Part shown: in pieces, positions 13,028-33,313 of the stretch | How the letters are laid out: each line of letters begins with the position of its first letter | How positions within the stretch are numbered: position 1 is the stretch's first letter | NCBI GenBank assembly: GCA_910579075.1 | Contig: CAJTSV010000001.1 | Location: forward strand, 11,304 to 75,303 | Length of the DNA stretch: 64,000 bases | Reading direction: 5' to 3' | From: an uncultured Eubacterium sp. | Lineage (GTDB): Bacteria; Bacillota; Clostridia; Lachnospirales; Lachnospiraceae | The notes under the pieces: generated by a model | The model's database searches: none | Told to the model about the DNA's origin: nothing | What the model saw: the letters and a program-made list of their open reading frames with translations, nothing else | Translations under genes and position numbers: made by a program

Positions 13028-14344
13028 TCAGAGTCCTTTCACTGCTTCTAATACATCCTTTATCTGTACCGCTATTTCGGCATCTCCAATCAAAAGACGT
13101 TCAAACTGGTTTTCCGCCTTTTTACTCTGCATATCATAATAAGCTTTATCTTCTACATATCGTTTTATAATTGCTGGATATTGTGAAATATCATCACACT
13201 GAAAATCTTCCCCTGCACAGGAGACTATATCTCCTGTTTTTAAGCACACTACTGGTTTCCCCTCATTCATTGCAGCGACACCAGCCCCTCCATTCCCAAG
13301 TCCTGGTGTCGCTGCAAGCAAATCTATCAATGCGACTGCTTCTGCAAATTCTTCCTGCCTGCCTAAAAAGCGTAAACGCTCTTTACACTTTACATGTTCA
13401 GCTACCTTTTTCTCAAATACTTCAACAGTTCTTCCAATAAAAATCAGCCAAATATCTTTTACGGTATGTAAATGCACAATCTGCTTTAATACATCCAAAA
13501 ATGATTCTGTACAATCACTTTGAAGCCGGTTACCTATAATACCAATACAAAATGCATTTTCTGGAATATCAAAGCAGTCTCTTTTTAATTTTCCTTTAGA
13601 CTTTTGATAAGATTTAAGCCCGATATTAATGTCCCGGATTATAACATGATGTTCTAATAAAAATTGTTTATCCTCTTTATAAAGTTCTGATGCCCGTTTA
13701 AAATAATTTACCACCATATCAGCGGGAATCCCTGGATACCCTTCACTAAACTGAGTATACAGCATAGGCGTAAATTGTTTCATTGCACCTGCAAACGCTG
13801 GCATGCCGCCAAAACACCAGACACAGTACGGCTTTTTCTGATATAAATAATTCATTAACTGTTTCATTTCCTGAATATTTTCCTGATTCAGCATTATCTG
13901 ATATCCACGATATGTAACTTCTTTTTTTTGAAGTGTAAATTCTCCTGTCAGCCTTTCATCATAATCCATCTCATAACATTGAAATCCCATGCTCATGCAC
14001 TTGGTCATATCTGATGTTTTAATCTCCAAAATTAAAAATACCTCTTTGTTAAGATATTTTCTAATTATTTTGCAGATTTCCAGTATAATCCGGCTGGGTG
14101 CATGTCTTTCAGATAATAACTGCGTTGCAGCTACAACAATAAAATCCGAATTCCTTTCACATACAGGAATCCTTTTATATTCGATTTTCAGCATCTTCTG
14201 CATGGTTTGTATAAAATATTCAGCGTGATTCCAATTCTCTGTAATTGCTATTTTTTTCCCATTCAAAAAGCAAACACTTGAGTACTGATTTCTTAATAAC
14301 AGACACTGAAAGAAATCCTGTTTACTGCCCAGTGCTTCACACAA
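13028..14344 (-). CDS. C-terminal half (GT-B domain) of a split FlmG-like TPR-glycosyltransferase
   Basis: Collinear with aa 475-912 of 15861..18599 (IGIIGNRLQSDCTESFLDVL..LLAATPGLGNGGAGVAAMNEGKPVVCL). The ORF-track start is a TTG. The frame is open upstream as far as the poly-G tract. Confidence 0.6.
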   Translation of the reverse strand: MCEALGSKQDFFQCLLLRNQYSSVCFLNGKKIAITENWNHAEYFIQTMQKMLKIEYKRIPVCERNSDFIVVAATQLLSERHAPSRIILEICKIIRKYLNKEVFLILEIKTSDMTKCMSMGFQCYEMDYDERLTGEFTLQKKEVTYRGYQIMLNQENIQEMKQLMNYLYQKKPYCVWCFGGMPAFAGAMKQFTPMLYTQFSEGYPGIPADMVVNYFKRASELYKEDKQFLLEHHVIIRDINIGLKSYQKSKGKLKRDCFDIPENAFCIGIIGNRLQSDCTESFLDVLKQIVHLHTVKDIWLIFIGRTVEVFEKKVAEHVKCKERLRFLGRQEEFAEAVALIDLLAATPGLGNGGAGVAAMNEGKPVVCLKTGDIVSCAGEDFQCDDISQYPAIIKRYVEDKAYYDMQSKKAENQFERLLIGDAEIAVQIKDVLEAVKGL

Positions 14345-14493
14345 TAATCCGTAAACATGTGCCAGTTCATCCTCTTTTCTATTCTTCTTGTATGCCGTTT
14401 CTATTTTTGCATATTCTTTTAAAATGTGTACATATCGATAATCTAAAAATGCATTATTCTGTTCTGTATTTCTCAGATTATCTATACACGGTT

Positions 14494-15771
14494 CTACCCC
14501 CCCCGCTTCCAGAAAGGCAGTTTCATTACAGCATAATCAGAATACATGCACATTACCATTGCTATACAAATATGCAGATGCCCTGCCAAGGATAAATTCC
14601 CCTTTATTTCCTTTATCTCTTGAAAATCACAAATACTGCGATACAAATTCATATTATAGGTAATACCCGTCAGGTAATTAATCTTTGCTACCGCAGAAAC
14701 TGCTTCATATCCTTTCTCATATATCCTGTTAGATAATATAACAGCATCTTCCCCATATCCCGATTCTAAAAATACACCGCATGTTAAATGCGATTTTATA
14801 AAATTTAAATACTCGCCCAATTGTTCCCACAGCATAATATCACAGCCATTTATGAGTATGGCAAAATTCCCCCATGCAGACTCTAAAAGTTTAAATATGC
14901 CTTGTTCACAGCTTTGTTCTTTCTCCAGATTGCAGACACGTATTCTGGAATCTTTGATTTGTTTATATTCTTCTGTTTTACGGCAAAGAATGACAAATTC
15001 TATCTCACTGTCATATGGGCACTGCAATAACTGAATTACATTCTGTATAGCAGTATTTTTATCAGATAAGTCAATAATACAAACTGATAAAAATATATTA
15101 TTATGTTCAGGCATTAATTGCGTTATCCTTTTTTGATGAAAAACATTTATCATATTCCAATACTTATTTTTATTTTCAGTTACCATCTGCTTTGGAAGAT
15201 AGAATTCATTATATTCTTCAAAATATATTTTCATATATCTATCATCTGGGAAAACAATTATATTTTCAAGATATAACTCACTAAAACGAGGCAGTTTGAA
15301 AAAAGAAGCAAACTGGGGTTCCAGCATTTCATTTAATAACAGATATACTGTATTCCAGCTTGTTTCTTTTAAATCTGGTATAATCTGCCTGATATCCCAA
15401 ATATCTGTATATAAAATGCTATCAAATTCAACATTTTCTCCCTGAATCGGATTTTTTTCGAGAAGGAATACGCCTTCAAATTCTTTTGTTTTTGAATTAA
15501 ATACAAAAAACTGTTCTTCACTGACAGGTATAAAGTCTATCGCACATGCCTCATAAGCAAGCCGGGTAAATCCAAGATTATTATGTTCATAATTTCGCTT
15601 AAATTCTTCCTCATTTGGCATTATAAAGCAATCGTACAAAATATTTAAAATCTTTTCTTTCTCGTATTCCAGCTCATATGCCTGAATAAAAGCATGAACA
15701 GCTTGTTCATATTGATTCAGTTCAAAAAAGAGAATCCCTTGATTAAAATATAATTCTCCAGCATTTCCCAT
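14494..15771 (-). CDS. N-terminal half (TPR-like + degenerate GT-A-like region) of the same split gene
   Basis: Collinear with aa 1-425 of 15861..18599 (MGNAGELYFNQGILFFELNQYEQAV against MNKGESFFKQGIQFFESEQYEQAV). Terminates immediately after the G8 tract. Confidence 0.6.
   Translation of the reverse strand: MGNAGELYFNQGILFFELNQYEQAVHAFIQAYELEYEKEKILNILYDCFIMPNEEEFKRNYEHNNLGFTRLAYEACAIDFIPVSEEQFFVFNSKTKEFEGVFLLEKNPIQGENVEFDSILYTDIWDIRQIIPDLKETSWNTVYLLLNEMLEPQFASFFKLPRFSELYLENIIVFPDDRYMKIYFEEYNEFYLPKQMVTENKNKYWNMINVFHQKRITQLMPEHNNIFLSVCIIDLSDKNTAIQNVIQLLQCPYDSEIEFVILCRKTEEYKQIKDSRIRVCNLEKEQSCEQGIFKLLESAWGNFAILINGCDIMLWEQLGEYLNFIKSHLTCGVFLESGYGEDAVILSNRIYEKGYEAVSAVAKINYLTGITYNMNLYRSICDFQEIKEIKGNLSLAGHLHICIAMVMCMYSDYAVMKLPFWKRGG
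14497..14504 (-). repeat. poly-C(8) on plus strand / poly-G(8) on the coding strand
   Basis: Read directly: gttcta-cccccccc-gcttcc. Confidence 0.95.
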
Positions 15772-15860: not shown

Positions 15861-18599
15861 TTATGTTTCTTTCACCATTTCCAGCACATTCTTTATCTGT
15901 ACAGCTATTTCTTCATCTTGAACCAAGAGACTTTCAAACTGCTTTTGTACCTTTTTACTCTGCATTTCATAATAGTCTTCATCTTCTATGTATCGTCTTA
16001 TCATTTCTGGATATTGAGTAATATCGCCACACTGGAAATCATCGCCTGTACAGGCAGCTATATCACCTGAATTTAAACAAACCACTGGTTTGCCTTCATT
16101 CATTGCTGTCACACCAGCGCCTCCATTTCCAAGTCCCGGTGTTGCTGCAAGCAAATCTATCAATGCAACAGCTTCTGCAAATTCCTTCTGATATCCTATA
16201 AACCGAAGCTGTTCACTTTCTGTAACATATTCTGCCACTTTTTTCTCAAATGCTTCGCTTGTTTCTCCAATAAAAATCAGGCAGATTTTTTTTGCTGTAT
16301 GTATTTGTACAATTTTCTTCAGCACATTCAAAAATGCATCTGTGCAGTCACTGTGAAGTCGATTTCCCGCAATCCCTATGCAAAATGCATCCTCTGGAAT
16401 ATCAAAGCTGCTCCGTTTCAGCTTGCCTGATGATTTTTGATAGGAATTCATCCCTATATTAATATCCTGAATAATAACATTATGTTCTAGTAAAAAATTT
16501 TTTTCTTCTGGATATGACGCAGCAGCCCGTTCAAAATAATTAACCACAATATCCGTGACAAATCCAGGATAGCCTTCATTAAATTGGGTATAAACCATAG
16601 TCGTAAACTGTCTCATAGCACCTGCAAAAGCCGGAATACCACCAAAGCACCAGACACAATACGGCTTTTTTTGATACAAATGCTGCATAACCTGCTTCAT
16701 TTCCCTGATATTCTGATGTGCAAGTATTACCTGATATCCATAATAGGTATCTCCATTATATGGATATCCAAAATTTCCTGTCAGCGTTTTTGTATAATTT
16801 ACTTCATGCCCGAAGAACCCTAAATCCCAGCATTTTTCTTCTTCTGTAACTGTAATCTCAATCATCAGAAATACTTGTTTCTGAAGGTATTTTTCAATCA
16901 GCCTGCAAATTTCCAATATAATTCTTGTCGGTGCATGTCTGACCGACAGCAGCTGCGCTGCCGCTATCACTATAAAATCAGCATTCCGTTCCTGTAATGG
17001 TATTTTAGAATAATTCATATTCAGTGTTTCCTGCATAGCCTGCATAAAGTATGCAGAATGATTCCAAACATCCTCTATATGCGGCCTTATGCCATTCATA
17101 AAACAACGGCCCATATACTGCTGCTTTAAAAGCAGACACTCAAATAAATCATTCTTTTTCATAACTGCACCAGATAATAAATCATAAATATAATCCAGCT
17201 CATTCTTACCATTTCTTAATTCCATGTTTCTCTTATATACTTCTGGCAAAATATTCCTGCTTCGGAATTCCAAAAATGCCTTTTTCTGTTTCTCTAAAAT
17301 TTCATCCTTTCTTTCATGCAAAGATTCCTTTGATTTTGTTTTCCACAATAACATCCCCGTAGTCGCACAGCTGGAAAATCTGCATAACAATGTTGCTATG
17401 CAAATATGTGTATATTCTTCCAGTAACCGATTTTCCTTCACCTTATCCATAAAATCCAGGCTGCTGATGCTGCGAAATAATTTCATGTTATATGTAATTC
17501 CCGTTAAATATTGCTGCTCTGACAAAGCACGCAAGGCATCATATCCCTTTGCACTTTCTTTTTCAGGCAGCCTGGAAAATATTTCTCCATCTCCTGATTC
17601 CAGAAATACACCGCTTACTGCATGCGCTTTAATAAAACTTAAATATTTTTCCAGTTCATCAACAATCATACTGTCGGTTTCGTACATGAAAACCGCATAC
17701 TGGCCCTGCACCAGTTCCAGCGCTTTCCATATTGCTGATGCATATCCATCTCCATTTTCCAACTCGCAAAAGCGGACTCTGGCATCCTTTATCTGTTCAT
17801 ATTCTTTCGGTCTGTTCTGCAATATAAGAATCTCAATTTCACTATCATAAGGACATTTTAATAACTGCAAGGCATTCTGCACAGCCACTGAATGATTCCT
17901 GAAGCTTAAAATACAAATAGACAAAAAGATATTTTTCCGGTCTGTATCAATATTTTTTACGCGGTTCTCATGCAATCTGTGAATCTGGTTCAGATACTTT
18001 GCCGTTTGATTTGTAACGAGCTGTTTCGGCAGGTAAAATTCCTCATATTCTTCAAAAAAAATCTGCATGTATTTTTCGTTCGGGAATACAACCACATTTT
18101 CCAGATACAATTCATGAAAATGTGGCAGCTTAAAAAAAGAAGCAAATTTCGCCTCCTGCCCGTTTAATAATATATAAACAGTCCCCCAGTAATTTTCATG
18201 CAAATCTGGCAGTATCTGACGAATATCCCATATATCTGTATAAAGAATACTATCAAACCGTACATTTGTACCGCGGACAGGCTTATCTTCTAATTCAATC
18301 AAGCCTTCAAATTTCGCTTCTTCCCGATTAAAAATATAAAAACAAACATCACTCACAGGTATAAAATCCAGCATGCATTCTTCATAAGCAATCCTGGTAT
18401 GCGCAGCGCTGTTGTATTTATAATTATTTCGAAATTCCTGTTCATTCGGGATAATAAAGCAATTATATAAAATATCCAGTATATGCTCTTTCTCATAACT
18501 ATGTTCATATGCCTGAACCAAACATGCTACAGCCTGTTCATATTGTTCTGATTCAAAAAACTGTATTCCTTGCTTAAAAAAACTCTCCCCTTTATTCAT
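15861..18599 (-). CDS. 912-aa multidomain protein: TPR-like N-terminus, degenerate GT-A-like middle, GT-B (GT41-like) C-terminus; candidate FlmG-type flagellin glycosyltransferase
   Basis: Intact version of the 14494..15771 + 13028..14344 pair. The start overlaps the pseC stop by 8 nt. Confidence 0.6.
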   Translation of the reverse strand: MNKGESFFKQGIQFFESEQYEQAVACLVQAYEHSYEKEHILDILYNCFIIPNEQEFRNNYKYNSAAHTRIAYEECMLDFIPVSDVCFYIFNREEAKFEGLIELEDKPVRGTNVRFDSILYTDIWDIRQILPDLHENYWGTVYILLNGQEAKFASFFKLPHFHELYLENVVVFPNEKYMQIFFEEYEEFYLPKQLVTNQTAKYLNQIHRLHENRVKNIDTDRKNIFLSICILSFRNHSVAVQNALQLLKCPYDSEIEILILQNRPKEYEQIKDARVRFCELENGDGYASAIWKALELVQGQYAVFMYETDSMIVDELEKYLSFIKAHAVSGVFLESGDGEIFSRLPEKESAKGYDALRALSEQQYLTGITYNMKLFRSISSLDFMDKVKENRLLEEYTHICIATLLCRFSSCATTGMLLWKTKSKESLHERKDEILEKQKKAFLEFRSRNILPEVYKRNMELRNGKNELDYIYDLLSGAVMKKNDLFECLLLKQQYMGRCFMNGIRPHIEDVWNHSAYFMQAMQETLNMNYSKIPLQERNADFIVIAAAQLLSVRHAPTRIILEICRLIEKYLQKQVFLMIEITVTEEEKCWDLGFFGHEVNYTKTLTGNFGYPYNGDTYYGYQVILAHQNIREMKQVMQHLYQKKPYCVWCFGGIPAFAGAMRQFTTMVYTQFNEGYPGFVTDIVVNYFERAAASYPEEKNFLLEHNVIIQDINIGMNSYQKSSGKLKRSSFDIPEDAFCIGIAGNRLHSDCTDAFLNVLKKIVQIHTAKKICLIFIGETSEAFEKKVAEYVTESEQLRFIGYQKEFAEAVALIDLLAATPGLGNGGAGVTAMNEGKPVVCLNSGDIAACTGDDFQCGDITQYPEMIRRYIEDEDYYEMQSKKVQKQFESLLVQDEEIAVQIKNVLEMVKET

Positions 18600-19713
18600 A
18601 TATGATATCCTTTAAATGCTCTATAACATAATCCTGCTGATTATCTGTCAATTCTGCAAATAATGGCAGACTGATTATATGTTCGTATAGCTTTTCTGCT
18701 TCCTGACAGCAGATATGCTGATATCCATGTTCCTGATAATAAGGGTGCTGATAAACTGGTATATAATTTACATTTACCTGAATTCCGGCATTTCTCAATC
18801 TATCAAAGACTTTCTTTCTGTTCTGAACCTGTATCACATATAAATGCCAGCTGTTATTGCATCCTTTTTCCTGATATGGGCATGTAATGGCTTCGATATC
18901 GCGAAACGCATCCTCATATCGTTTTACCAGTTCCTTTCTTCTTATAATAAACTTGTCCAGTTTCCGCATCTGAGACACACCAAGCGCACACTGTATATCT
19001 GTAATCCGGTAATTATAACCTAAATCCACCTGCTGATAATACCAGCCGCCTTCATTTTTCGTCATCAGGCCTTCTTCTCGCGTAATCCCATGGCTGCGGA
19101 ATAATTTCAGCTTTTCGTACAGCTTCTTATCATTTGTAGTTATCATTCCGCCTTCTCCCGTTGTAATATGCTTTACCGGATGGAAACTGAATGTCGTCAT
19201 ATCTGAAATTGTCCCTATTTTTCTGCCTTTGTAATCAGCCCCCAGCGCATGTGCCGCATCCTCAATCACTGTAAGATGATGCTCTTTTGCAATTGCATGA
19301 ATCTCATCCATATCACATGGCTGGCCTGTATAATGCACTGCTATAATTGCTTTTGTTTTTTTTGTTATTTTTTTCCGGATATCTGACGGGTCAATATTAT
19401 AAGTATCTGGCCTGATATCAGCAAAAACAGGCATACCCCCGCAATACAGCACACAATTTGCAGATGCTGCAAAAGTCATCGGTGTTGTAATAACCTCATC
19501 TCCGTCCTTAATACCCGCTGCAAAACAGGCAGCATGTAATGCTGCCGTCCCATTCGCAATTGCAACTGCATATTTTGCACCAGTGTACTCACACACAGCT
19601 TTTTCAAATTCACAAACTGCCGGCCCTGTTGTAAGGTAATCACTTTGCAGTATTTCTGCTACTGCCTGTATATCATCCTCATCTATCCATTGCTTTCCAT
19701 ATGGTATAATCAT
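18592..19713 (-). CDS. pseC: UDP-4-amino-4,6-dideoxy-N-acetyl-beta-L-altrosamine transaminase
   Basis: N-terminal signature IPYGKQWIDEDDIQAV..LQSDYLTTGP, then FSFHPVKHITTGEGG. Sits among pse genes. Confidence 0.85.
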   Translation of the reverse strand: MIIPYGKQWIDEDDIQAVAEILQSDYLTTGPAVCEFEKAVCEYTGAKYAVAIANGTAALHAACFAAGIKDGDEVITTPMTFAASANCVLYCGGMPVFADIRPDTYNIDPSDIRKKITKKTKAIIAVHYTGQPCDMDEIHAIAKEHHLTVIEDAAHALGADYKGRKIGTISDMTTFSFHPVKHITTGEGGMITTNDKKLYEKLKLFRSHGITREEGLMTKNEGGWYYQQVDLGYNYRITDIQCALGVSQMRKLDKFIIRRKELVKRYEDAFRDIEAITCPYQEKGCNNSWHLYVIQVQNRKKVFDRLRNAGIQVNVNYIPVYQHPYYQEHGYQHICCQEAEKLYEHIISLPLFAELTDNQQDYVIEHLKDIIYE

Positions 19714-19800
19714 TCTCTGATACCTGCCTCTATGTTATATTCCTTTCTTTCACAATCATTGCATTTCTTGCCTTAGTGTCTTTGCATTTCATTTAACAAC

Positions 19801-20829
19801 TCAGTTATGTTTACTGTTACAATTCATCCCTATTAACTCTTTCGCAATTCTCGCCGCCCCGCCACCATCTACCAGTTCCTGCATTCCCCTGATGCGCTGT
19901 TCCCTTAGTTCATACTGCTGCTCATACTGTTCAAGCACCAATGCAGCTTTCTCAGATACATCCTCAAAACGTATATCTCCAAGATAATCCATTAATCCAT
20001 CCTGTGCAAACTGACGTACATTATCCAGCTGATTATCTGCAAAAGAATATGTTATCGTCGGTGTCCCACAGGCGCAAAGCTCATATAGTGTTGTTCCACC
20101 AGCGGATATTGCTGCATCTGCCCTCAGCATATAATCTTTTATGTCATTGACAGATTTATGAATATGAATATTTCTATTCTGGCCATATTCCCGACTCAGC
20201 TGTTCATAATCAGTGCAATATGTCCCGCAAATCACATCAACTGCCTTATATTTGCTGCAATTAAGCCTTTTCAGAAATTGTGGCAATATATGAAATTTAT
20301 CGCTGCCACCCGACATTAACAGAATATTTTCCAGCCGGCTTTTAACCTCATTTCTTTTCAGTCCATGAAAATCTTTTCTAAGGGGAACATACTGTGTTCC
20401 AAGCAAAAGTTTTGTTTCTTTATAGTTCTGACTATATTTAAATTTCTGCCAATAATTCGCATAACAAATCAGAATATGAACTGGATACACAAACGTATTT
20501 CTATCATCTATATATGCAGTTTTTGTCCATTTTGCCAAAGCCTGAAGGTAACTTTTTGTTACCATATAACTGTCTATCAGCAAGGCTTTAATTCTCTTTT
20601 CCTGAATTACCTGATACAATGCATCCAATTCAGAATCCATATCATCCCATTTTGTATGTAGCACGACAGCCTGATATCCTCTCTCCTGAATCAATCCAAG
20701 CGCCTCGCTGTCTGCCAGAATAAACGTAACATCCTCGCCCAGACTGGCCGCTGCATCCGCAATCGAAAGACATCTCATCATGTGTCCGGTAGCAATCGAC
20801 GGATTCATATCCGTTCTTATATATAACAT
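19801..20829 (-). CDS. pseG: UDP-2,4-diacetamido-2,4,6-trideoxy-beta-L-altropyranose hydrolase
   Basis: YIRTDMNPSIATGHMMRCLSIADA N-terminus and GT28/MurG-like C-terminus (SAGGTTLYELCACGTPTI). Neighbours are pseC and pseH. Confidence 0.75.
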   Translation of the reverse strand: MLYIRTDMNPSIATGHMMRCLSIADAAASLGEDVTFILADSEALGLIQERGYQAVVLHTKWDDMDSELDALYQVIQEKRIKALLIDSYMVTKSYLQALAKWTKTAYIDDRNTFVYPVHILICYANYWQKFKYSQNYKETKLLLGTQYVPLRKDFHGLKRNEVKSRLENILLMSGGSDKFHILPQFLKRLNCSKYKAVDVICGTYCTDYEQLSREYGQNRNIHIHKSVNDIKDYMLRADAAISAGGTTLYELCACGTPTITYSFADNQLDNVRQFAQDGLMDYLGDIRFEDVSEKAALVLEQYEQQYELREQRIRGMQELVDGGGAARIAKELIGMNCNSKHN

Positions 20830-20853
20830 GTTCTACCCTCAAAAAGTCTCTAT

Positions 20854-21543
20854 TTAAGAAAAAATCTCCATTCTATAATATTGCTCTTTATATCCCATTT
20901 CAATGTTTTTATATCTTCTAAGAAAATCTCCTATATTATCATTCCAGCTAAATTTTATTTTTTCTTTCAGCATATCCAGTTCTTTTTTGACATGACAGCT
21001 TCCTTTTCCTGCCTGCTCTGTTAATGAATAACAGCCATCTTTCATTTCATCCCATTTTTCCTTCATTAATTCCACAATTTCTTTATTCAATTTGTCATAA
21101 GTGGTCTGTAATGTTTCCTTCTCAATGTCAAAAAAACACTGTTTTTGATACAATATTTTTCCAGTATCGAGTCCTTCATTTACCTGATGTATGGTTACTC
21201 CTTTTGGCGTGTCATCAATAAAACTCCATATATTTGGATTGGAACCGCGATTCCATGGCAGAAATGAAATGTGGAGGTTCCAGATTCTCCCATTCATATA
21301 TTCTATCAGTTCTCTGCTAATCAGGTATTTATAATTATAGCTGATAATAAAATCCGGCTTCAGATTCTGCAACTGGCACATCAGCAAGCGTTCACTATAT
21401 ATATGAACTGTTTCACGCTGTTTCAGCCAATGATACAAATCCAGAGAGTTACTGTTATTCGTTAAAAATAATACCCCCCCCCGAATTTGTTTCCAGTGTT
21501 TTAGATATAGCGCCACAGGCATCTGTTTCAATTTCATATACAT
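20854..21543 (-). CDS. formyltransferase-family domain protein; its own start is doubtful and it may be the C-terminal half of a GNAT-formyltransferase fusion
   Basis: Formyl_trans_N-like pattern: VLFLTNNSNSLDLYHWL, FIISYNYKYLI, NLHISFLPWNRG, HQVNEGLDTG. All in-frame ATGs lie inside the upstream GNAT gene and lack an RBS. Confidence 0.6.
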   Translation of the reverse strand: MYMKLKQMPVALYLKHWKQIRGGVLFLTNNSNSLDLYHWLKQRETVHIYSERLLMCQLQNLKPDFIISYNYKYLISRELIEYMNGRIWNLHISFLPWNRGSNPNIWSFIDDTPKGVTIHQVNEGLDTGKILYQKQCFFDIEKETLQTTYDKLNKEIVELMKEKWDEMKDGCYSLTEQAGKGSCHVKKELDMLKEKIKFSWNDNIGDFLRRYKNIEMGYKEQYYRMEIFS

Positions 21544-21952
21544 TGCATTTGTACGTATATCCTGTATCTAAAAACACTTTTTGGGAAGCGATATTATCCG
21601 GTTTCACTTTTGCAATCAGTTTCTTTACTCCTGGAAAATCCTTCTGTACCTGTACTTGAAGAAGCCCAACCATTTCTTTGGCATACCCCATGCACCTTTT
21701 TTCAACACAGATACTGTAACTAATCTCAGCTGTATCTCCACTGACAGTAATTCGTATCTGTCCAACTGGTTCATCTTCCATATAAATATACTGTTTCGCA
21801 TCCTTGCGCACCAGCATATTGTCAAACCACTTTATGTGCTCCTCATATGTTATCTCCGCAGAGGAAAATGCATTTTTCCTGACAGTACTTTCATTTGCCC
21901 AATGAAATAATAAATCCGCGTCTTCCTGTACGGCATCTCTCAAATAACCCAT
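21455..21952 (-). CDS. pseH: GNAT N-acetyltransferase, PseH-like
   Basis: GNAT fold (DLLFHWANESTVRKNAF, CVEKRCMGYAKEMV). Located between the Pse-associated methylase and pseG. Ends 6 codons after a G9 tract. Confidence 0.6.
   Translation of the reverse strand: MGYLRDAVQEDADLLFHWANESTVRKNAFSSAEITYEEHIKWFDNMLVRKDAKQYIYMEDEPVGQIRITVSGDTAEISYSICVEKRCMGYAKEMVGLLQVQVQKDFPGVKKLIAKVKPDNIASQKVFLDTGYTYKCNVYEIETDACGAISKTLETNSGGGIIFNE
21474..21482 (-). repeat. poly-C(9) on plus strand / poly-G(9) on the coding strand
   Basis: Read directly: aata-ccccccccc-gaattt. Confidence 0.95.
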
Positions 21953-22028
21953 AACGTAATCTCCAGTTTCTATTTCATCCTGTCCAGTCTTTCCGAATCA
22001 GCGGCATGCCCTTGCTGCTCTCACTGGC

Positions 22029-22658
22029 TTATCTTTTTTCAAGCAGGAACCAGGTAGAATCGTCCTGTGGGAAATGATAATCCCTGTGATAATTAAATTT
22101 ATAATCAACAAGTGCTGTATCTGGGTATTTATCCATAAATTCACCCGCAAAATCGCGCTTAAAAAGCCTGTCCGAATTACCGCGGTATTGTACCGTAACC
22201 GGAGTCGGGTTATAATATTCTGCAATACAGATATACCGTTTGGAAGATTCATATAATTTACGATAAACCTCCTGCAGTTCATCCGGATTTATATGAATTA
22301 ACACCCCTTTTATCAGTACAAAATCAAACTGCTTTTCTGGTTCATATTCTAATATAGACTGTTCATATACCTGTATCTCATGGTTAAAAAATGCATCATT
22401 CTTTAAAATCTCAGCTGCTTTATGGTTAATCTCAATCGCAGAACATGCAATTTGTGGAACCAATGTTTTAATAGCTTTTAAATTCATTCCAATATTAGAA
22501 CCAAATTCTATGACTGAATCTATTTTATTCATTCTCTGAATAATTTCTGAAAAAACACCAATATTACCTGCCAGCAGCTGTGTACTGTCGTTTCTTTCAA
22601 TATATGCATCTCCAAATTCGCCACTCCAAAATTCTTCCTGTTCTGTTTTATATGCCAT
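22029..22658 (-). CDS. pseudaminic acid biosynthesis-associated methylase
   Basis: The N-terminus (EEFWSGEFGDAYIERN) and SAM motif (VIEFGSNIGMNL) fit that family as I remember it. Adjacent to pseB. Confidence 0.65.
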   Translation of the reverse strand: MAYKTEQEEFWSGEFGDAYIERNDSTQLLAGNIGVFSEIIQRMNKIDSVIEFGSNIGMNLKAIKTLVPQIACSAIEINHKAAEILKNDAFFNHEIQVYEQSILEYEPEKQFDFVLIKGVLIHINPDELQEVYRKLYESSKRYICIAEYYNPTPVTVQYRGNSDRLFKRDFAGEFMDKYPDTALVDYKFNYHRDYHFPQDDSTWFLLEKR

Positions 22659-22790
22659 TTTTCATTCTCCTTTATAACCTGTCCATATTGAATTATATTC
22701 TGCTTGTTTTAACTTTTTATATTTGAATAGTTCCTTTTCGTAATTGCCTGCATTTCACTTCACAACGTATACAGGTTAATTTGTCCATTT

Positions 22791-23786
22791 TCAATGGTTC
22801 AAATCCATATTGGCAAGCAGTCCCTGAAGCTGTTCTACACTCAGCCATTCTGTATTTGTTCCTGAACTATATTCAAAACCATCCTCTACTTTTTTTCCGC
22901 CCGGAATAATCCGGTCTTCTCCCCACCAGTTATAATGCGGATATACAATATAATGCTTCTCATATTCATAAGTCATAGCAGAATCTTCCCGCGTAACCAT
23001 TACCTCGTGCAGCTTTTCACCTTCACGGATTCCCACCTCCGGCATCTCGCATCCTGGCTGAATCGCCTGGGCCAAATCCGTAATTTTAAAAGAAGGTATT
23101 TTGGATATAAACGTTTCCCCGCCCCGTGCTTCTTCCAAAGCTTTGATAACAAGCCGGACTCCTTCTGCCAGGCTAATCCAGAATCTTGTCATACGGTAAT
23201 CTGTAATTGGCAGTTTATCCCCGCCATTTTTTACGATGTTCTGAAAAAATGGGATGACAGACCCACGGCTCCCTGCTACGTTTCCATACCGGACAATAGA
23301 GAACCGTACATCTTTGGTACCGGAATAAGCATTTGCTGCTACAAATAATTTGTCGGATACAAGCTTCGTGCCGCCATAAAGATTAATCGGATTCACGGCC
23401 TTATCCGTAGAAAGTGCTACTACGCGCTTTACCCCGCAATCCAGTGCTGCATCTGCAATATTCATTGCTCCATTAATATTTGTTTTAACCGCTTCCATTG
23501 GATTATATTCACATGCCGGCACCTGCTTTAATGCTGCTGCATGTATTACATAATCTACACCGTCAAATGCACGATACAAACGTTCCTTATCCCTCACATC
23601 TCCGATAAAAAAACGTAGTTTATCTTTATACTGATTAAATTTTCCCGCCATATGAAACTGCTTAAATTCATCTCTGGAATAGATAATAATTTTTCGAGGG
23701 TTGTAATTTGACAACGCATATTCTGTAAATGCGTTTCCAAATGAACCTGTCCCACCAGTTACTAATATTGTTTTTCCGTTTAACAT
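22791..23786 (-). CDS. pseB: UDP-N-acetylglucosamine 4,6-dehydratase (inverting)
   Basis: ILVTGGTGSFGNAF, YSRDEFKQ, HAAALKQVP, STDKAVNPINLYGGTKL. 331 aa. Confidence 0.9.
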   Translation of the reverse strand: MLNGKTILVTGGTGSFGNAFTEYALSNYNPRKIIIYSRDEFKQFHMAGKFNQYKDKLRFFIGDVRDKERLYRAFDGVDYVIHAAALKQVPACEYNPMEAVKTNINGAMNIADAALDCGVKRVVALSTDKAVNPINLYGGTKLVSDKLFVAANAYSGTKDVRFSIVRYGNVAGSRGSVIPFFQNIVKNGGDKLPITDYRMTRFWISLAEGVRLVIKALEEARGGETFISKIPSFKITDLAQAIQPGCEMPEVGIREGEKLHEVMVTREDSAMTYEYEKHYIVYPHYNWWGEDRIIPGGKKVEDGFEYSSGTNTEWLSVEQLQGLLANMDLNH

Positions 23787-23804
23787 CTTAATGCCTCCTG
23801 TTAA

Positions 23805-25661
23805 TTAATGAATTTCAAGCAGTGTTTCTTCTGCAAATTCTTTGAGTATCTGTGCACACTGCTGCAGCAGTTTTGCATACTTCATGCCCTGTTTTGATAT
23901 GGCTTTTCCTTCTTCTTCAATCGAATCCAGTGAAAACAGGCTTTCACTTTTGACAATAAGTTCACCAACCGTCATTGTCGAAGACACAATCTGGTACATA
24001 CTGTTTCTTTCGCACGTTTTTGTCATTTTCTTAACTTTTTTTAACAGTTTTTCATAATCTGCCCGGTTCATGTTTCTGGCCCTGCACATTAAATTTATCT
24101 TGTGGTAAGCGGTATAGAGCTTTTTCGCATCACGGTAAATATATGCGAACTGCTCTGGAATCGAATGCAGATATTCTACAACTTTATCACGTTCATCATT
24201 TATAAATTCTGGTTTTACATTTTGAATACATTCCTCAAAATTAATTTCTTCCTTTGGACACGTTGCTTCAATTGCATCACGCAGAGGCATTACCTCTGTT
24301 CCTTCAATATATGCTCCCCCAGCCGTTGCATTAATCACCCTGACATTTGGCCGGTGTTCTTTCATCCCTTTAATATGTGCTTCAAACCACTCTAAATACA
24401 TTTTCAAATTGCCAAGTGTTGGCAGTTCTTCTTCGTAATTTCCTTTTACCCGTATCATTCCATCTGTATTTTCTTCTGGCATTACATCTTTAAACGTGCC
24501 GTCTGCGTGAGAACGGTTATCTGTATATGCCAAATCCTGTCCTACCAGAATAATCGTATCAAATCCCATTTTATAGAGCAGTGAAAGACAAGTACATGCA
24601 ACAGACCCGCCGCTTGACAGAGATGGCAGTATCCTTCCAATAGCTGTATATGCATAATAAGCTAAGACATGACCGTCTGAATAAAAAAATTTCTTTCCCC
24701 TCTGTTCTTGCAGAATATCTGAATTAGCAGTAGCAGACGCAATAATTGGAATGTCTTTCGCCTCATCTGCCTGAACCAAATCCAGCGGTTTCATAGGATC
24801 AATTGTACAGAATGCATCAGGATGGATTCCCGCTCGAAGCAGTGGCTTCATCGCTGTATCGACTGCAAGGATAAAAGCCCTGTTTTTTGCTGCCTTCAGC
24901 TCCTGTATATTTTTATTTAAAGAAGGACCAGCTGCCACCAAAATTGCGGGCCTGTCATGAGGTACTGTCTGCATCAGGCATTTTACATGATATCCTTCAC
25001 ATAAATATTTCATATTTGCCATCTGGTTACGCGCCATATAAGTCGAAAAATTAACGCCTGTCATCTGATTTGAGACTACAAATTCTTCTCTTTTCTGAAT
25101 CAGCTTTGTTTTTTCAAACACTTTATCATAAAACAGTTCCTGGTAATTCGGATGAATTACCACTTTTAAGAACATCCTGTTTTCAAAAGACAATATTCTA
25201 CGGCATGCTGTGTCAAATGCAGCCTCATTCAACCCTTCCACTACAAAAATAATCGGACGATTTTCTATTTCACTGGATAAATCTACTTCGTTCAGCATTT
25301 GAAGAAAAATGGAAAGAGATGGCTCATATACAACAACAGCAACCGTCTTGTCCGATTCTTTTATCAGACGTTTTAAGTATATCCCGCTGCCTGTTCCAAG
25401 CAAAAAAACAGGAGCATATTTATGAATTTCTCCGAGATGCTCCATCCAGATATCTGCCGGTTCCCTGGCATTTCTTTTCCCATTCAGATACAAAAGACGT
25501 TCTCCCTGTTTCACCCGGAAAATTAATTCCCCATCCTGAGAAACCTCTTTTATAATTTCTAATTCATCTAATTTATAATCACCATTTCTCAGCTGTTCTG
25601 CAAACGCTGGATACCATTTTTCCATTGCCATTAAATTGCCATCCAATATTTCTTTACTCAT
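23805..25661 (-). CDS. maf: motility accessory factor (Maf, DUF115/MptE-like) putative flagellin pseudaminyl transferase
   Basis: Core AILVAAGPSLNKNIQELKAAKNRAFILAVDTAMKPLLRAGIHPDAFCTIDP. I prefer the start at 25661 (GGGGTGGA RBS; the ATG overlaps the upstream stop as ATGAGTAA). The ORF track starts at 25682. Confidence 0.8.
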   Translation of the reverse strand: MSKEILDGNLMAMEKWYPAFAEQLRNGDYKLDELEIIKEVSQDGELIFRVKQGERLLYLNGKRNAREPADIWMEHLGEIHKYAPVFLLGTGSGIYLKRLIKESDKTVAVVVYEPSLSIFLQMLNEVDLSSEIENRPIIFVVEGLNEAAFDTACRRILSFENRMFLKVVIHPNYQELFYDKVFEKTKLIQKREEFVVSNQMTGVNFSTYMARNQMANMKYLCEGYHVKCLMQTVPHDRPAILVAAGPSLNKNIQELKAAKNRAFILAVDTAMKPLLRAGIHPDAFCTIDPMKPLDLVQADEAKDIPIIASATANSDILQEQRGKKFFYSDGHVLAYYAYTAIGRILPSLSSGGSVACTCLSLLYKMGFDTIILVGQDLAYTDNRSHADGTFKDVMPEENTDGMIRVKGNYEEELPTLGNLKMYLEWFEAHIKGMKEHRPNVRVINATAGGAYIEGTEVMPLRDAIEATCPKEEINFEECIQNVKPEFINDERDKVVEYLHSIPEQFAYIYRDAKKLYTAYHKINLMCRARNMNRADYEKLLKKVKKMTKTCERNSMYQIVSSTMTVGELIVKSESLFSLDSIEEEGKAISKQGMKYAKLLQQCAQILKEFAEETLLEIH

Positions 25662-25992
25662 TCTTTGCATCCACCCCGTCATTTTCTTCTGTGATGAATA
25701 TATCCAACAATTCCCTCAAACCAAAGTCCAGCGTATCTATCATAAGCACCAAGTCTCTCTGACGCACTGCTTCCATGTAATCATTTAGAACATGCAGTAT
25801 ATAGTCCTGCAAACCTCTGCTTTCTTCCGTCTGCTCGCCCTCACTGATTCCCTGTATCATGGCAGAAGCAAACTGCTGAATCTGTCCTGCCAGTTTTTCT
25901 CCCTCCGTAACTGCGTCAAATTTATGCAGAAAATAATAATTAATGCAAATTATTCCGATTTTATCAGCCAGATTTTTTGCCAATACTTCCAT
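25654..25992 (-). CDS. hypothetical small acidic protein (112 aa), translationally coupled to maf
   Basis: First ORF after the fliC terminator. Its stop overlaps the maf start. Confidence 0.5.
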   Translation of the reverse strand: MEVLAKNLADKIGIICINYYFLHKFDAVTEGEKLAGQIQQFASAMIQGISEGEQTEESRGLQDYILHVLNDYMEAVRQRDLVLMIDTLDFGLRELLDIFITEENDGVDAKNE

Positions 25993-26023
25993 ATATTACA
26001 GCTCCCGCTTTTCATCTTTTATT

Positions 26024-26057
26024 CAAAAAAACAGAGGTACGATACCTCGTACCTCTG
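26024..26057 (-). terminator. rho-independent terminator of the flagellin gene
   Basis: Perfect 11-bp stem cagaggtacga/tcgtacctctg with a 4-nt loop. On the minus strand it is followed by TTTTTTT. Confidence 0.8.
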
Positions 26058-26096
26058 CAATTTTGTATTCCAATTCTATTTAACAGTATAATCAGA

Positions 26097-27299
26097 TTAC
26101 CCTAACAGAGATAATACGCCCTGTGTACTCTGATTAGCCTGTGCAAGCATTGACTGTCCAGCCTGTGCAAGAATATTATTCTTGCTGTACTCAACCATTT
26201 CAGAAGCCATATCTGTATCACGAATACGGGATTCTGCTGACTGTGTATTCTCAGCTACGTTATCAAGGTTTGCAATTGTATGCTCTAATCTGTTCTGGAT
26301 AGCACCAAGTGCTGACCTCTGGGAAGACACCTTGTTAATAGCATCCTGAATAGCATCAATAGAAGCGTTTGCAACCTGATAGTTATCTACGCCAACCATA
26401 CCTTTTGCAGTATATCCGCTCAACTGCACACCAGATGTAACCTTTGTCTCAAGGAAATCTGCAAAATTTGTTTTCAGGTCTTCTTCTGCCTTATCCATAG
26501 CAATGCTGAAATCTGCTGCTGCAACACTTGCTGATGTTCCAAATCTCTGGTTTGTCAGTTTGCCAATAAAATATACACTGCCTGTATCTGTATCAAACTG
26601 TGCAGCGTAAGTAGAAGCACGGTAAATAGAAGTGCCAAAGCGAAGGCTGATGCTTCCTAAAACTGCAGATATATTAGCACCTTTAGACAAACCTGTACTA
26701 TATATATGACTGGTACCTTTATACCTAACAACAGTAGGACCATTGCCATGCTGAATATCGCCTGCATACTCTTTATTAATTGTCTTTAATCCCAATGTCT
26801 GAGCATTCATGTTGCCGATACTGATACGAATCTTCTGATTTGAGTTTGCGCCAACCTGAAGGTTCTTGTTTGTAAATGTACCATCCAGCAAGTTCTGCTT
26901 ATTGAACTGTGTTGTCTGAGAAATTCTGTCTAATTCAGCTGTTAAAGCAGATAACTCCTGATTAATAGCATCGCGGTCGATTTCTTCGTTTGTATCGTTA
27001 GCACCCTGAACTGCCAGTTCATTCATACGCTGTAAGATAGAATGAGCTTCATTTAAAGCACCTTCAGCTGTCTGGATAAGAGATACACCATCCTGTGCAT
27101 TGGAAGAAGCTTTGTTTAAGCCGCGAACCTGGCTTCTCATTTTTTCAGAAATCTTTAAGCCTGCTGCATCATCGCCCGCACGGTTGATTCTGTAACCAGA
27201 AGATAACTTTTCAGAAGATTTAGCCTGTGAACCAGTTGTAACGCCTAACTGACGGTTAGCGTTCATAGCTGTGAGATTATGCTGTACTACCATTGCCAT
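26097..27299 (-). CDS. fliC: flagellin
   Basis: MAMVVQHNLTAMNANRQLG..SSEKLSSGYRINRAGDDAAGL..SLIQTAEGAL N-terminus. C-terminus is ..NILAQAGQSMLAQANQSTQGVLSLLG. The central region is S/T-rich. Confidence 0.95.
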   Translation of the reverse strand: MAMVVQHNLTAMNANRQLGVTTGSQAKSSEKLSSGYRINRAGDDAAGLKISEKMRSQVRGLNKASSNAQDGVSLIQTAEGALNEAHSILQRMNELAVQGANDTNEEIDRDAINQELSALTAELDRISQTTQFNKQNLLDGTFTNKNLQVGANSNQKIRISIGNMNAQTLGLKTINKEYAGDIQHGNGPTVVRYKGTSHIYSTGLSKGANISAVLGSISLRFGTSIYRASTYAAQFDTDTGSVYFIGKLTNQRFGTSASVAAADFSIAMDKAEEDLKTNFADFLETKVTSGVQLSGYTAKGMVGVDNYQVANASIDAIQDAINKVSSQRSALGAIQNRLEHTIANLDNVAENTQSAESRIRDTDMASEMVEYSKNNILAQAGQSMLAQANQSTQGVLSLLG

Positions 27300-27307
27300 A
27301 ATAATTT

Positions 27308-27339
27308 TCCTCCTTGAATTTACTGCATCGTCCCTGATG
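27308..27339 (-). promoter_or_regulatory. fliC leader: hairpin presenting AGGGA in its loop, plus a GGAGG Shine-Dalgarno (putative CsrA binding sites)
   Basis: Minus-strand text gcatcAGGGAcgatgc (27324..27339), about 10 nt upstream of caAGGAGGa. fliW and csrA are encoded in the same window. Confidence 0.5.
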
Positions 27340-27435
27340 CAAATTTGTTATTTTGATTTCGATAGAACTCTGGCAAGCCGTACGCACCTGTCTGAAATCC
27401 TATCATTTTAAGTAATGTTGTTTTACTTGTATTAT

Positions 27436-27462
27436 ATATCGGACGCATGGGCAGATACTTTA
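27436..27462 (-). promoter_or_regulatory. sigma-28 (SigD/FliA)-type promoter of fliC
   Basis: Minus strand reads TAAA-16 nt-CCGATAT, about 135 nt upstream of the ATG. Confidence 0.7.
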
Positions 27463-27514
27463 TAGCCATCTTAAAATTTTTTAAAGGTTTTATTTAGTCT
27501 CCTGCCAGCTTCTG

Positions 27515-28175
27515 TTATTTATCACAGCGCCGCAAAACAGGAACCAGATTTTTATATGTAATTTCCAGCCTTTCCCATCTTCCATCAATAACTACAGAAT
27601 CTGGCAGTAATAAATTCTGCGCCTCAGAAAATGGCGTCATATCTGCCACCATTTGAAATAATTTAATCAAATCTGCTCCCAGTCCATGTTCTGCATGCTT
27701 AAATATGTTTCCATCCACATCATCTGGCCACACAGTTATCAGCGCTGCCCTGTTTCCTAATGTGTTGAAAAACTGTTTCTTTTCACCATTTCCTGCATAA
27801 CGCCCATATCATTGCAATCCAGCCAGCTTTCTCCAGTATCAATATCTGCCTGAATCTCATCTTTACCACTCAGCATCTGTCCATCAACAATTTGTTCCAG
27901 TTTTTCTTCAAAATTCTGCATATACTGGATGCCAAAATAATCGCACTGCAAGACGGCCATATTATATTCATCTGCAAACTGAGTCCTCATTTTATGATAC
28001 ACTCTCGAATCAATACAGTCTCCATACCCGGGAATCAGACACAAAATACCTGTCTTGGCATTGATTCCCATCTCTGGAATGCTAAACACAACACGAAGCC
28101 TACGCTGCTTATTACCCCCCCCGGAACATATATGCTGTCCTGAGCAGAAATAAACACTTCCATTTCACTTGCCAT
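27515..28175 (-). pseudogene. decayed alpha/beta-hydrolase-like gene, possibly DUF2920-like, with a 5' poly-G tract and a second frameshift
   Basis: RBS AGGAGA + ATG at 28175 gives MASEMEVFISAQDSIYVPGG. After the G8 tract the frame switches to GNKQRRLRVVFSIPEMGINAKTGILCLIPGYGD (ORF 27757..28089). A further shift near 27760 leads into ORF 27515..27733 (..DVDGNIFKHAEHGLGADLIKLF..). Total length is only about 215 codons. Confidence 0.55.
28115..28122 (-). repeat. poly-C(8) on plus strand / poly-G(8) on the coding strand
   Basis: Read directly: atta-cccccccc-ggaaca. Confidence 0.95.
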
Positions 28176-28292
28176 AATCTGTCTCCTGAATTTCACTTAC
28201 TGTAAAATGCACCTGCTTCACTAAATTATTTTAATTGTTTTATATAATACATTTTTTCAGCTATCAGGCCGTACATGCTGCCAGCTGCTGCA

Positions 28293-29339
28293 TTACTCTG
28301 CATATTTCCATTCCATCGGAGTCCCTTTTGGAATATCACACCGTGCTCTCTGCCCAAGTACATTTTCATAATATTTTGTATGCATCCCAATCCCTGGCCT
28401 GATTGATTTCAGATTGGATTCTGAAAATACATCCCCTTTTTTCATATCCTGCGCCACAAATAAGGAACGTGAATTTTTGCGGCTTTTGACTTGTTCTTCA
28501 TTCAGCTCATACGTCACTCTGCCTAATGCCCGTTCTGTGTTTCTGATTTTTCTTACCATCTGTCCAAATTCTTCAGGCTCCATGGAAAAAGCCGCATCCG
28601 GTCCGCCGTCACTGCGTTTTAATGTCAGATGCTTTTCCACCATCTTTGCTCCAAGCGCAACTCCTGCAATCGCCGTTTCGTCCCCCAGCGAATGATCCGA
28701 CAGCCCTGTGATACAGCCAAATGTCTGACCCATATTTGATATTACTTTTAAATTCATATTTTCATAAGGTGCCGGATACGCAGAAACACATTTTAACAGA
28801 ATGACATTCTCATTCTGTTCCTGCCGGCAGGTCCTGAGTGCTAAATCAATGTCTTCCAGATAAGCAATCCCTGTTGATATAATGACGGGCTTGCCAGTTT
28901 TTGCTATTTTTTTTATAAATGGAATGTCATTAATTTCAAATGACGCCACTTTATAAGCCGGAACTTCCAGCTTTTCCAGAAAGTCAATGGCAGTCAAATC
29001 AAAAGGAGACGAAAAGCAGCCGATTCCCCTTGCTTTTGCATGCTGCATCAATTCCTCGTGCCATTCCCATGGCGTATATGCCTTTTGATACAGCTCATAT
29101 AACGTCTGTCCTTTCCAAAGGCCTCTTGCCTGAAAATACTCAGCGCTGCCATTCATCGTAATTGTGTCCGGTGTGTATGTCTGTAATTTTACTGCATCTG
29201 CCCCCGCATCTGCCGCCGCATCGACAATTTCTTTCGCCCTGTTCAAATCCATTTTATGATTTGCCGACATTTCAGCAACAATATATACGGGCCCGTTCTC
29301 TGTAATTACGTGATTTCCTATCTTTATTTCTTTGTTCAA
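28293..29339 (-). CDS. pseI: pseudaminic acid synthase (NeuB family)
   Basis: VYIVAEMSANHKMDLNRAKEIVDAAADAGADAVKLQTY, with a C-terminal SAF/antifreeze-like domain. Next to pseF. Confidence 0.85.
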   Translation of the reverse strand: MNKEIKIGNHVITENGPVYIVAEMSANHKMDLNRAKEIVDAAADAGADAVKLQTYTPDTITMNGSAEYFQARGLWKGQTLYELYQKAYTPWEWHEELMQHAKARGIGCFSSPFDLTAIDFLEKLEVPAYKVASFEINDIPFIKKIAKTGKPVIISTGIAYLEDIDLALRTCRQEQNENVILLKCVSAYPAPYENMNLKVISNMGQTFGCITGLSDHSLGDETAIAGVALGAKMVEKHLTLKRSDGGPDAAFSMEPEEFGQMVRKIRNTERALGRVTYELNEEQVKSRKNSRSLFVAQDMKKGDVFSESNLKSIRPGIGMHTKYYENVLGQRARCDIPKGTPMEWKYAE

Positions 29340-29379
29340 ATTGTTTCCCTCTCTTATTTTGTAATGCTGCCTGCACTTT

Positions 29380-33081: not shown

Positions 33082-33313
33082 TCTGCCCCTCCCCCTATCA
33101 AAAATGCATTTATGCCAGCACATATTCTTTTTTCTTTCATAATTTAATGATGTACACTCCCTGTTTTTTCTTCCTAAATTTGCATATATATTTTTCACAA
33201 CTCTTTCCTTGCTCGTTCTATGCATTTCTTAAATAAACATTTACATGCTGTGATGTTTACAATTAAACCTAAATAAACTCGTAATCTTAACTACAGCATC
33301 GAATTTATAATCA

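Follow-up and report, generated by a model that had tools for sequence, protein, structure and literature searches.

Why should a long gene in a flagellin glycosylation island be split into two open reading frames (ORFs) exactly at a run of eight G residues? The gene, which we call gene 1, lies on a 64,000-nucleotide (nt) stretch of contig CAJTSV010000001.1 (assembly GCA_910579075.1) from an uncultured Eubacterium sp. of the Lachnospiraceae; that whole stretch is referred to below as the window, and the run of G residues as tract 1. We consider it very likely that tract 1 is a simple-sequence contingency tract subject to slipped-strand phase variation, as an earlier note on this DNA had suggested, and that the window captured gene 1 in its truncated state. 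The evidence consists entirely of consensus sequences assembled from short-read metagenomes; slippage within a lineage, its reversibility and the glycan phenotype are inferred. The parts of gene 1, and an adjoining paralogue that serves as an internal control, are the following (aa, amino acids).

14494..15771, minus strand: 5′ part of gene 1, 425 aa at G8, ending in FWKRGG and a stop codon; complete N-terminal module
14497..14504, minus strand: poly-G tract 1, G8 in the window, encoding R423-G424-G425; in frame at G9, and also at G6 or G12
13028..14496, minus strand: 3′ part of gene 1, with a flexible linker, a helical region and a GT-B (GT4/OGT-like) module; read only at G9
15861..18599, minus strand: intact paralogue of 912 aa, with KTKSKE and no poly-G at the equivalent position

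The C8 run at 14497..14504 of the plus strand reads as G8 on the coding minus strand (...CTG CCT TTC TGG AAG CGG GGG GGG TAG), and the ORF coordinates place it precisely where the gene breaks, as the earlier note had pointed out; its description proved correct in all particulars. The downstream ORF (13028..14344) encodes 438 aa, and the adjacent frame is open from tract 1 as far as 13028. Insertion of a single G gave one ORF of 914 codons and a stop codon (2745 nt), the outcome that the note had predicted; G6 likewise restores the frame. The gene 1 product has 914 aa at G9, and 430, 425, 431 and 426 aa at G7, G8, G10 and G11, respectively, with translation of these four forms terminating 0-6 codons past the tract. 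Two properties of a contingency locus were found in tract 1: it is an uninterrupted mononucleotide repeat of at least about 7 units within a coding sequence, and the gain or loss of one repeat unit shifts gene 1 between the full-length and the truncated frame. The restored product could be aligned with the paralogue from end to end at 57% identity, and the residues following the tract (423-476) are the least conserved. The paralogue is found on 249 public contigs, and its fragment variants are few.

The presence of a G8 by itself is unremarkable in the window, since the observed count of four overlapping G8 matches, although above the mean of 1.18 in dinucleotide shuffles, was also attained in 8 of the 100 shuffled sequences. 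The aspect that is not due to chance is the pattern: three runs of at least eight, located at frame breaks in one island, and all length-polymorphic. The C-run spectrum of the plus strand is bimodal (28 runs of C5, two of C6, none of C7, two of C8 and one of C9), and the longest G run is no more than 4. Only three G/C runs longer than 6 exist in the 64 kilobases (kb), at 14497-14504 (G8), 21474-21482 (G9) and 28115-28122 (G8). All of these are G tracts of the coding strand, within about 14 kb, and each is positioned exactly at a frame break between two ORFs.

The two strands of the window are, in addition, strongly asymmetric: C makes up 25.0% and G 16.8% of the plus strand, and nearly every long ORF is encoded on the minus strand. 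G/C runs of 6-7 are fewer than the composition would predict, and runs of 8-9 are confined to the glycosylation island.

If tract 1 is hypermutable, its length should differ among near-identical genomes. The restored 914-aa protein (P0043), identical to the G9 reconstruction, occurs on 162 public contigs, where NCBI names it glycosyltransferase in a metagenome-assembled genome (MAG) of an "Eubacterium sp." Tract lengths were counted among members of the 90% cluster of this protein that carry the window's own allele, and were read from the protein ends.

G7: product ending in ...KRGGRTVYR, 3 public contigs (length deduced from the protein end)
G8, the window form: product of 425 aa ending in ...KRGG, 55 public contigs
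G9 (P0043): full 914 aa, 162 public contigs
G10: product ending in ...KRGGGRTVYR, 17 public contigs
G11: product ending in ...KRGGG, 4 public contigs

The lengths G8 to G11 were confirmed in DNA whose backbone, compared over 8-22 kb, differs from the window at no more than one position. Thirty-one loci from various runs and studies were read at the DNA level, 24 of them, from independent samples, across this region; 18 carry no substitution relative to the window over 8-22 kb; the differences of these 18 from the window, if any, are indels of 1-3 nt inside the poly-G tracts. Three loci do not differ from the window at all, even at the tracts. The remaining loci have 1-50 mismatches, with the exception of a 98.5%-identical MAG that carries a second allele (allele B), and their indels are likewise at the tracts. 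A/T runs provided a control: 30 of them, 7-9 nt long and comprising among others five A8/T8 runs and an A9 (13010-13018), were examined in 4-22 loci each and were invariant in length, and no indel was seen at two G6 runs among the loci compared at the DNA level. Runs of one accession series, and so probably of one study, give differing tract lengths. Examples with the same backbone are SRR27282885 and SRR27310818, with a consensus of G8, SRR27310472 and SRR27313155 (G9), SRR27282904 and SRR27310808 (G10), and SRR27283002 and SRR24675157 (G11). Because several independent tract changes were seen versus zero substitutions in about 20 kb, the tract must mutate orders of magnitude faster than the average site. 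Length polymorphism on near-identical genomes is, therefore, far above background at tract 1.

Allele B encodes a 96%-identical 914-aa protein (about 98.5% identical DNA) and has a tract 1 of G9 on 28 contigs and of G8 on 3. The MAG GCA_948640785.1, which carries this allele, has G9 at tract 1 and G8 at tract 2 (described below), and a separate G8 form of tract 1 is represented by P0051. A scan of metagenome contigs with the flank of the tract yielded one further contig, of allele B with G9. The earlier note had reasoned that a uniform G9 would mean an assembly error and an invariant G8 a fixed pseudogene, and that related strains and metagenome bins should be compared. In the public assemblies tract 1 is neither of these; its lengths of G7 to G11 on the window's allele support the proposed variability, and the polymorphism on otherwise identical DNA argues for slipped-strand phase variation.

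Over up to 22 kb of positions 3028-25773, the window is identical, tracts aside, to contigs representing five or more accession series as well as three MAGs. The organism is unusually clonal across samples. A literature search with the accessions of the samples and assemblies gave no match; the laboratory mouse is a conceivable host, as hinted at by the accession ranges and by an MGBC relative (see below).

What would be lost when gene 1 is truncated? Sequence comparison was of limited help in answering this question. The Pfam matches of gene 1 are weak, comprising TPR_1 at residues 6-34 (E=0.0024; 18.1 bits, cut-off 27.8) and Glyco_trans_1_4 at residues 744-851 (E=2.4e-4, under the family cut-off), whereas the paralogue has a Pfam GT2 match at residues 249-376. 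No named family was found for gene 1 in NCBIfam or in a PDB sequence search. The two halves of gene 1 occur as separate homologues, the N-terminal half in GT2 proteins of about 600 aa and the C-terminal half in proteins of about 795 aa, and gene 1 is thus a fusion of two modules. An AlphaFold2 model built from a 30-sequence alignment (mean predicted local distance difference test score, 82.8) showed an N-terminal module (residues 1-422, the last strand being 412-422), a low-confidence linker (426-465) and a C-terminal module (469-914). The N-terminal module consists of helical hairpins (residues 4-64), a beta region and a GT-A/GT2-like domain, and a second helical region spans residues 428-528. 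The best PDB matches of the model in Foldseek were OGT, which combines TPR and GT-B, and the GT4 enzymes BshA and WaaG (E about 1e-10). As judged from the model, tract 1 is located at the exact module boundary; the G8 product is, therefore, predicted to be the whole N-terminal module. Separate translation of the downstream halves of the split genes in their off states was set aside, because the possible internal starts lack a purine-rich ribosome-binding site, which the native starts possess; for the same reason the GT-B module is taken to be absent at G8. The internal TTG at 14344, for example, has no Shine-Dalgarno sequence before it. The off state could be leaky if transcription slipped, or ribosomes shifted frame, on G8.

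Gene 1 had been described as FlmG-like, and this description holds in part. To our knowledge, FlmG is not phase variable. In Caulobacter crescentus, FlmG is a flagellin O-glycosyltransferase of 596 aa in which an N-terminal TPR domain is followed by a C-terminal GT-B domain (PMC7591256). Gene 1 also resides in a locus for flagellin glycosylation with pseudaminic acid (Pse), its GT-B half comes after a helical region that may be TPR-like, and according to the model the C-terminal domain is a GT-B domain, as in the FlmG type, which resembles OGT and GT4 enzymes at the fold level. In contrast, gene 1 encodes 914 aa with an additional N-terminal helical and GT-A (GT2-like) module and therefore departs from the two-domain architecture of about 600 aa without a further catalytic module; the likeness is one of fold, and no family could be assigned by sequence. 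Furthermore, the island of gene 1 holds its own Maf-type candidate Pse transferase. Pfam detected no PF01973 (MptE-like) match in gene 1, whereas the neighbour at 23805..25682 has one. Membership of gene 1 in the FlmG type is not established.

Is tract 1 an isolated case? The other two long G tracts of the window also lie at frame breaks, in genes that we call gene 2 and gene 3.

21474..21482, minus strand: poly-G tract 2, G9 in the window; G8 joins the GNAT and formyltransferase domains in a 365-aa protein
21455..21952, minus strand: GNAT (PseH-like) ORF, 165 aa at G9, on 162 public contigs
20854..21543, minus strand: formyltransferase-domain ORF, whose own frame reads through tract 2; candidate starts lack an obvious ribosome-binding site
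28115..28122, minus strand: poly-G tract 3, G8 in the window, 18 codons into the gene; G9 joins the ATG at 28175 to ORF 27757..28089
27515..28175, minus strand: remnant of a DUF2920-family (alpha/beta-hydrolase-like) gene, in an N-terminal piece (27757..28175) and a C-terminal piece of 72 aa (27515..27733)

The fused 365-aa form of gene 2 (P0190, G8) is found on 67 contigs as compared with 162 for the split form, and G7, G8, G9 and G10 were all seen in DNA at tract 2. The tract lengths of gene 1 and gene 2 vary independently, giving ten different combinations. Among the 120 homologue clusters listed, which share 40-61% identity, the majority contain a fused GNAT-formyltransferase in which the junction RGG-VLFLTNN is conserved; we take the fusion, therefore, to be the ancestral intact state of gene 2, which is split in the window. 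Tracts 1 and 2 are alike in being positioned at module boundaries, tract 1 preceding the low-confidence linker and tract 2 falling in the conserved junction. The GNAT domain scored 39.1 bits against the NCBIfam PseH model (TIGR03585; cut-off 93.1), which is below the equivalog score. A PseH-like role is suggested by context, in that it is the sole GNAT amid pseB/C/G/I/F in the island core.

Gene 3 differs in being a remnant in the window: from this allele, the common one, about 125 internal aa have been deleted, the GSSHG motif among them. An intact 349-aa relative (P0217, on 3 contigs) scores 73.3 bits on Pfam DUF2920 (PF11144; cut-off 24.7), whereas the window remnant alone scores 19.5 bits, under the cut-off. 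The lengths of tract 3 deduced from public proteins are G7 on 4 contigs, G8 on 34, G9 on 275, G10 on 40 and G12 on 1. As exact proteins, the G9 form (P0203) is on 238 contigs and the broken form of the window on 27. In one contig, L017 (2708-2716, corresponding to 28114-28122 of the window), the base after tract 3 is G rather than T, which turns G8T into G9 with the length unchanged.

A switch of another kind was found upstream of the glycosylation genes.

33311..33458, strand not assigned: invertible DNA element with 17-nt inverted repeats (33311-33327 and 33442-33458) flanking a 114-nt core (33328-33441)
33500..34126, minus strand: small serine recombinase (resolvase/invertase family), Pfam Resolvase E=1.3e-28, 42 nt from the element

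The element resides between the recombinase gene and the next glycosylation gene. Contig L027 (ERZ14231414 NODE_65) is equivalent to the window with exactly the 114-nt core inverted and 0 mismatches elsewhere, and five other loci have the orientation of the window. Both orientations, the inverted repeats and a nearby site-specific recombinase are, therefore, present, as in known invertible switches. The recombinase has a weak NCBIfam match to an Mpi-type invertase; a look-up of the exact protein gave no match, the start codon probably being called differently, and a scan of metagenome contigs for the inverted-repeat junction also gave none. The arrangement resembles Salmonella hin and the Clostridioides difficile flgB switch, in which a short inverted-repeat segment near flagellar genes, found in both orientations, adjoins a recombinase gene. 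What sets the element apart is that its recombinase is a small serine enzyme and that glycosylation genes lie downstream of the element; the likeness concerns 33311-33458 only, not tract 1.

Three observations on this element deserve mention. The minus strand of the core carries a TAAG-N15-AACGATAT motif that is similar to a sigma-D/sigma-28 promoter and faces the glycosylation genes in the window orientation; as a candidate promoter, suggested by its sequence, it provides a lead, and a sigma-70 scan found nothing on that strand. In two allele-B MAGs (L025:5063-5224 and L029), the recombinase gene is interrupted at the equivalent of about 33790 by an insertion of 162 nt that is bounded by perfect 14-nt inverted repeats (CCTGGATTCTCGGA), contains GTGACGAGG repeats in its interior and resembles a miniature transposable element. 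By splitting the recombinase gene, the insertion might lock the invertible element. Contig L030 starts at 33495, adjoining the inverted repeat.

The consequences of tract slippage can be considered only in the context of the island, whose core is composed of the following genes.

18592..30084, minus strand: core of the Pse flagellin glycosylation island (Pfam/NCBIfam)
18592..19713, minus strand: PseC (NCBIfam 524.6 bits, cut-off 423.5)
19801..20829, minus strand: PseG (NCBIfam 171.8 bits, cut-off 153.55)
22029..22658, minus strand: methyltransferase
22791..23786, minus strand: PseB-like
23805..25682, minus strand: Maf (MptE-like; PF01973, E=3.1e-43)
26097..27299, minus strand: flagellin
28293..29339, minus strand: PseI/NeuB
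29380..30084, minus strand: PseF-like cytidylyltransferase

Since gene 1 belongs to this island, the likely effect of its switching is a changed flagellin glycan and not the loss of flagella. The core pathway of Pse synthesis and Maf have no tract, and we expect, therefore, that the decoration of the glycan varies and that the filaments are retained. We infer these effects on the glycan from domain content and from the context of the island. The mechanism that we propose is that replication slippage makes the tract one G longer or shorter and thereby toggles gene 1 between two states. At G9 it would specify the full 914-aa enzyme with both glycosyltransferase modules; at G8, G7, G10 or G11 the N-terminal helical and GT-A module would be made alone and the GT-B module would be lost. 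Gene 2 would toggle between the GNAT-formyltransferase fusion and GNAT alone, so that Pse acetyl transfer would be kept and a formyl-type modification lost or uncoupled. The two further poly-G tracts of the island would slip independently, with the recombinase-driven invertible element acting upstream, and the combined switches could allow a clonal population to display several flagellin glycoforms.

Several observations weigh against the view that tract 1 is a contingency tract. G9 is the mode at all three tracts whatever the consequence for the reading frame, and a constant G9 with noise would fit this equally well. Some contigs have low coverage (one is named with cov 6.7) and poly-G is an error-prone context. 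The L017 change could be a tract-extending substitution, but it looks like an Illumina phasing artefact, and it urges caution on poly-G calls. Variation persists at tract 3 although gene 3 is dead, and variability alone is, therefore, no proof of function. Finally, the islands of two distant relatives (an uncultured Eubacterium sp. and Lachnospiraceae MGBC110001) contain no G/C run of 7 or more, so that the poly-G trait must be narrow. One possible explanation that draws on these points is technical, namely, that the true tract is always G9, gene 1 is intact, and the other lengths, including the G8 of the window, are homopolymer miscalls. The difficult context, the shared mode, the low-coverage contigs, contigs that end at the tract (L040) and the resemblance of the T-to-G change in L017 to a phasing error would all be in keeping with it. 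Nevertheless, it needs a wrong consensus in 19-33% of assemblies, made by several assemblers in several studies, when no error affects the A9 or any of the five A8/T8 runs in 21-22 loci. It does not readily account for +2 changes (G11) on error-free backbones or for the different lengths given by runs of one accession series. A uniform technical error should give the three tracts one length spectrum, but their spectra differ significantly (chi-square p=5e-5, gene 1 versus gene 3). Moreover, with G9 constant, gene 2 could never be whole, although the great majority of its listed homologue clusters contain the fused form. We regard a purely technical origin as improbable.

Alternatively, the tracts might be hypermutable and have no adaptive role, as hot spots in a decaying island where frameshifts are neutral or mildly deleterious. 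That tract 3, in a gene destroyed by deletion, varies as much as the others would follow from this hypothesis, as would a G9 mode independent of the frame, and the truncated DegT remnant at the island edge (see below) and the two related species devoid of such tracts are also consistent with it. What it leaves unexplained is the confinement of runs of 8-9 to this island when runs of 6-7 are depleted, the retention of the tracts in two alleles about 1.5% apart in DNA, the exact placement of tracts 1 and 2, by which each state gives a complete folded module, and the fact that intact forms stay the majority for gene 1. The DUF2920 family and the same type of locus carry poly-G in Campylobacter jejuni as well (PMC7099621). 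We think that this hypothesis, too, is unlikely, slightly more so than the technical one. Least likely is the idea that gene 1 is a fixed, permanently inactive pseudogene whose function was taken over by the paralogue at 15861..18599, which we find hardly credible: the 57%-identical intact paralogue does adjoin gene 1, and the window allele is broken, but the identical allele is intact on 162 contigs versus 55 on which it is broken, no other disabling change is present, and the 3′ half is fully open and identical to that of the intact allele. Slipped-strand phase variation of gene 1 is, thus, the explanation that we favor.

How far does such a system resemble those already known? The closest comparison is with C. 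jejuni, an organism in which mismatch repair is absent. Its flagellar glycosylation locus has phase-variable poly-G in DUF2920 genes (PMC7099621), and its contingency loci (maf genes, cj1295 and the DUF2920 genes cj1305c, cj1306c and cj1310c) are likewise intragenic tracts of G8-G11 with a mode of G9 (PMC3401435, PMC7099621, PMC3068675). There, too, several tracts reside in one island for flagellin glycosylation with pseudaminic or legionaminic acid, in glycan-modifying genes that include DUF2920, and they switch independently to give combinatorial phasotypes (PMC3401435, PMC7099621, PMC3068675). The G9 mode of C. jejuni is brought about by an insertion bias at G8-G9 and a deletion bias at G10-G11 (PMC3401435), and the G9 mode shared by our three tracts matches the mutational equilibrium measured there. 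The organism studied here differs in being Gram-positive; it is an uncultured gut bacterium, Eubacterium-like or Lachnospiraceae-like, with a G+C content of 42%. Its Maf gene has no tract, and two of its tracts are at domain boundaries of fusion enzymes, where slippage removes a module and does not act as a simple on/off switch. Among Gram-positive bacteria, homopolymer slippage also switches surface or motility genes in the pilus loci of Bifidobacterium breve, another gut commensal (PMC9187656), and at a flagellar gene hot spot of Paenibacillus glucanolyticus (PMC9941203). The targets in those cases are pili or a flagellar structural unit, not multi-tract islands, whereas here they are enzymes of the flagellin glycan; and those switches were proven with reads or by experiment, whereas the present case is built from consensus contigs.

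A broader proposal is that the island holds a Campylobacter-style combinatorial phasome acting on the flagellin glycan, with three independent poly-G tracts and an invertase, which arose convergently, re-uses DUF2920 and, in a gut commensal, detaches modules by slippage. For this proposal we judge the balance of the evidence to be about even. The literature searched contained no description of phase variation driven by repeats in the flagellin glycosylation of Clostridia or Lachnospiraceae, in agreement with the impression of the earlier note that the mechanism is not established in flagellin glycosylation islands of Firmicutes; C. jejuni is the only organism for which phase variation is mentioned in a survey from 2026 on flagellar glycosylation with Pse in Clostridium (PMC13317340). 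The mechanism itself is classical. What is new is the lineage, the clustering of three tracts together with an invertase switch, and the placement at domain boundaries.

Multi-locus slipped-strand phase variation has been described almost entirely from pathogens, and an uncultured gut commensal of the Clostridia type with a flagellin-decorating pathway is a candidate counter-example. Flagellins of Lachnospiraceae are major targets of antibodies and of TLR5 in the gut. If our interpretation is correct, multi-locus, repeat-driven phase variation exists in a non-pathogenic Gram-positive commensal, where it could tune the recognition of immunodominant gut flagellins by antibodies, TLR5 or phages. 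There is also a practical side, in that poly-G tracts cause gene callers to split genes in MAGs, and flagellar glycan capacity may look lost when it has only been switched. The many public runs with identical backbones and different tract lengths would permit a read-level comparison that does not require culture.

The surroundings of the island are flagellar. The long minus-strand ORFs between about 600 and about 46000 together make up a flagellar region. Downstream of gene 1 are aminotransferase, methyltransferase, WbqC-like, GNAT and sulfatase-family genes; upstream lie genes for FliS, FliD, a protein with a flagellin N-terminal domain and two FlgK-type hook-associated proteins. The DegT-family aminotransferase at 608-1261 is cut at about residue 217 of 370, and the remainder is absent. 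We considered whether it is another frameshifted gene and rejected this, as it is a truncation remnant at the island edge with no homopolymer break. Two large sulfatase-superfamily proteins are encoded in the island (2893-4929 and 5468-8020). In related organisms, proteins of 1170-1250 aa join the sulfatase domain to a GT2 module whose homologue in gene 1 is the N-terminal half, and these fusions hint, by their domain composition, at a phospho-substituent on the glycan.

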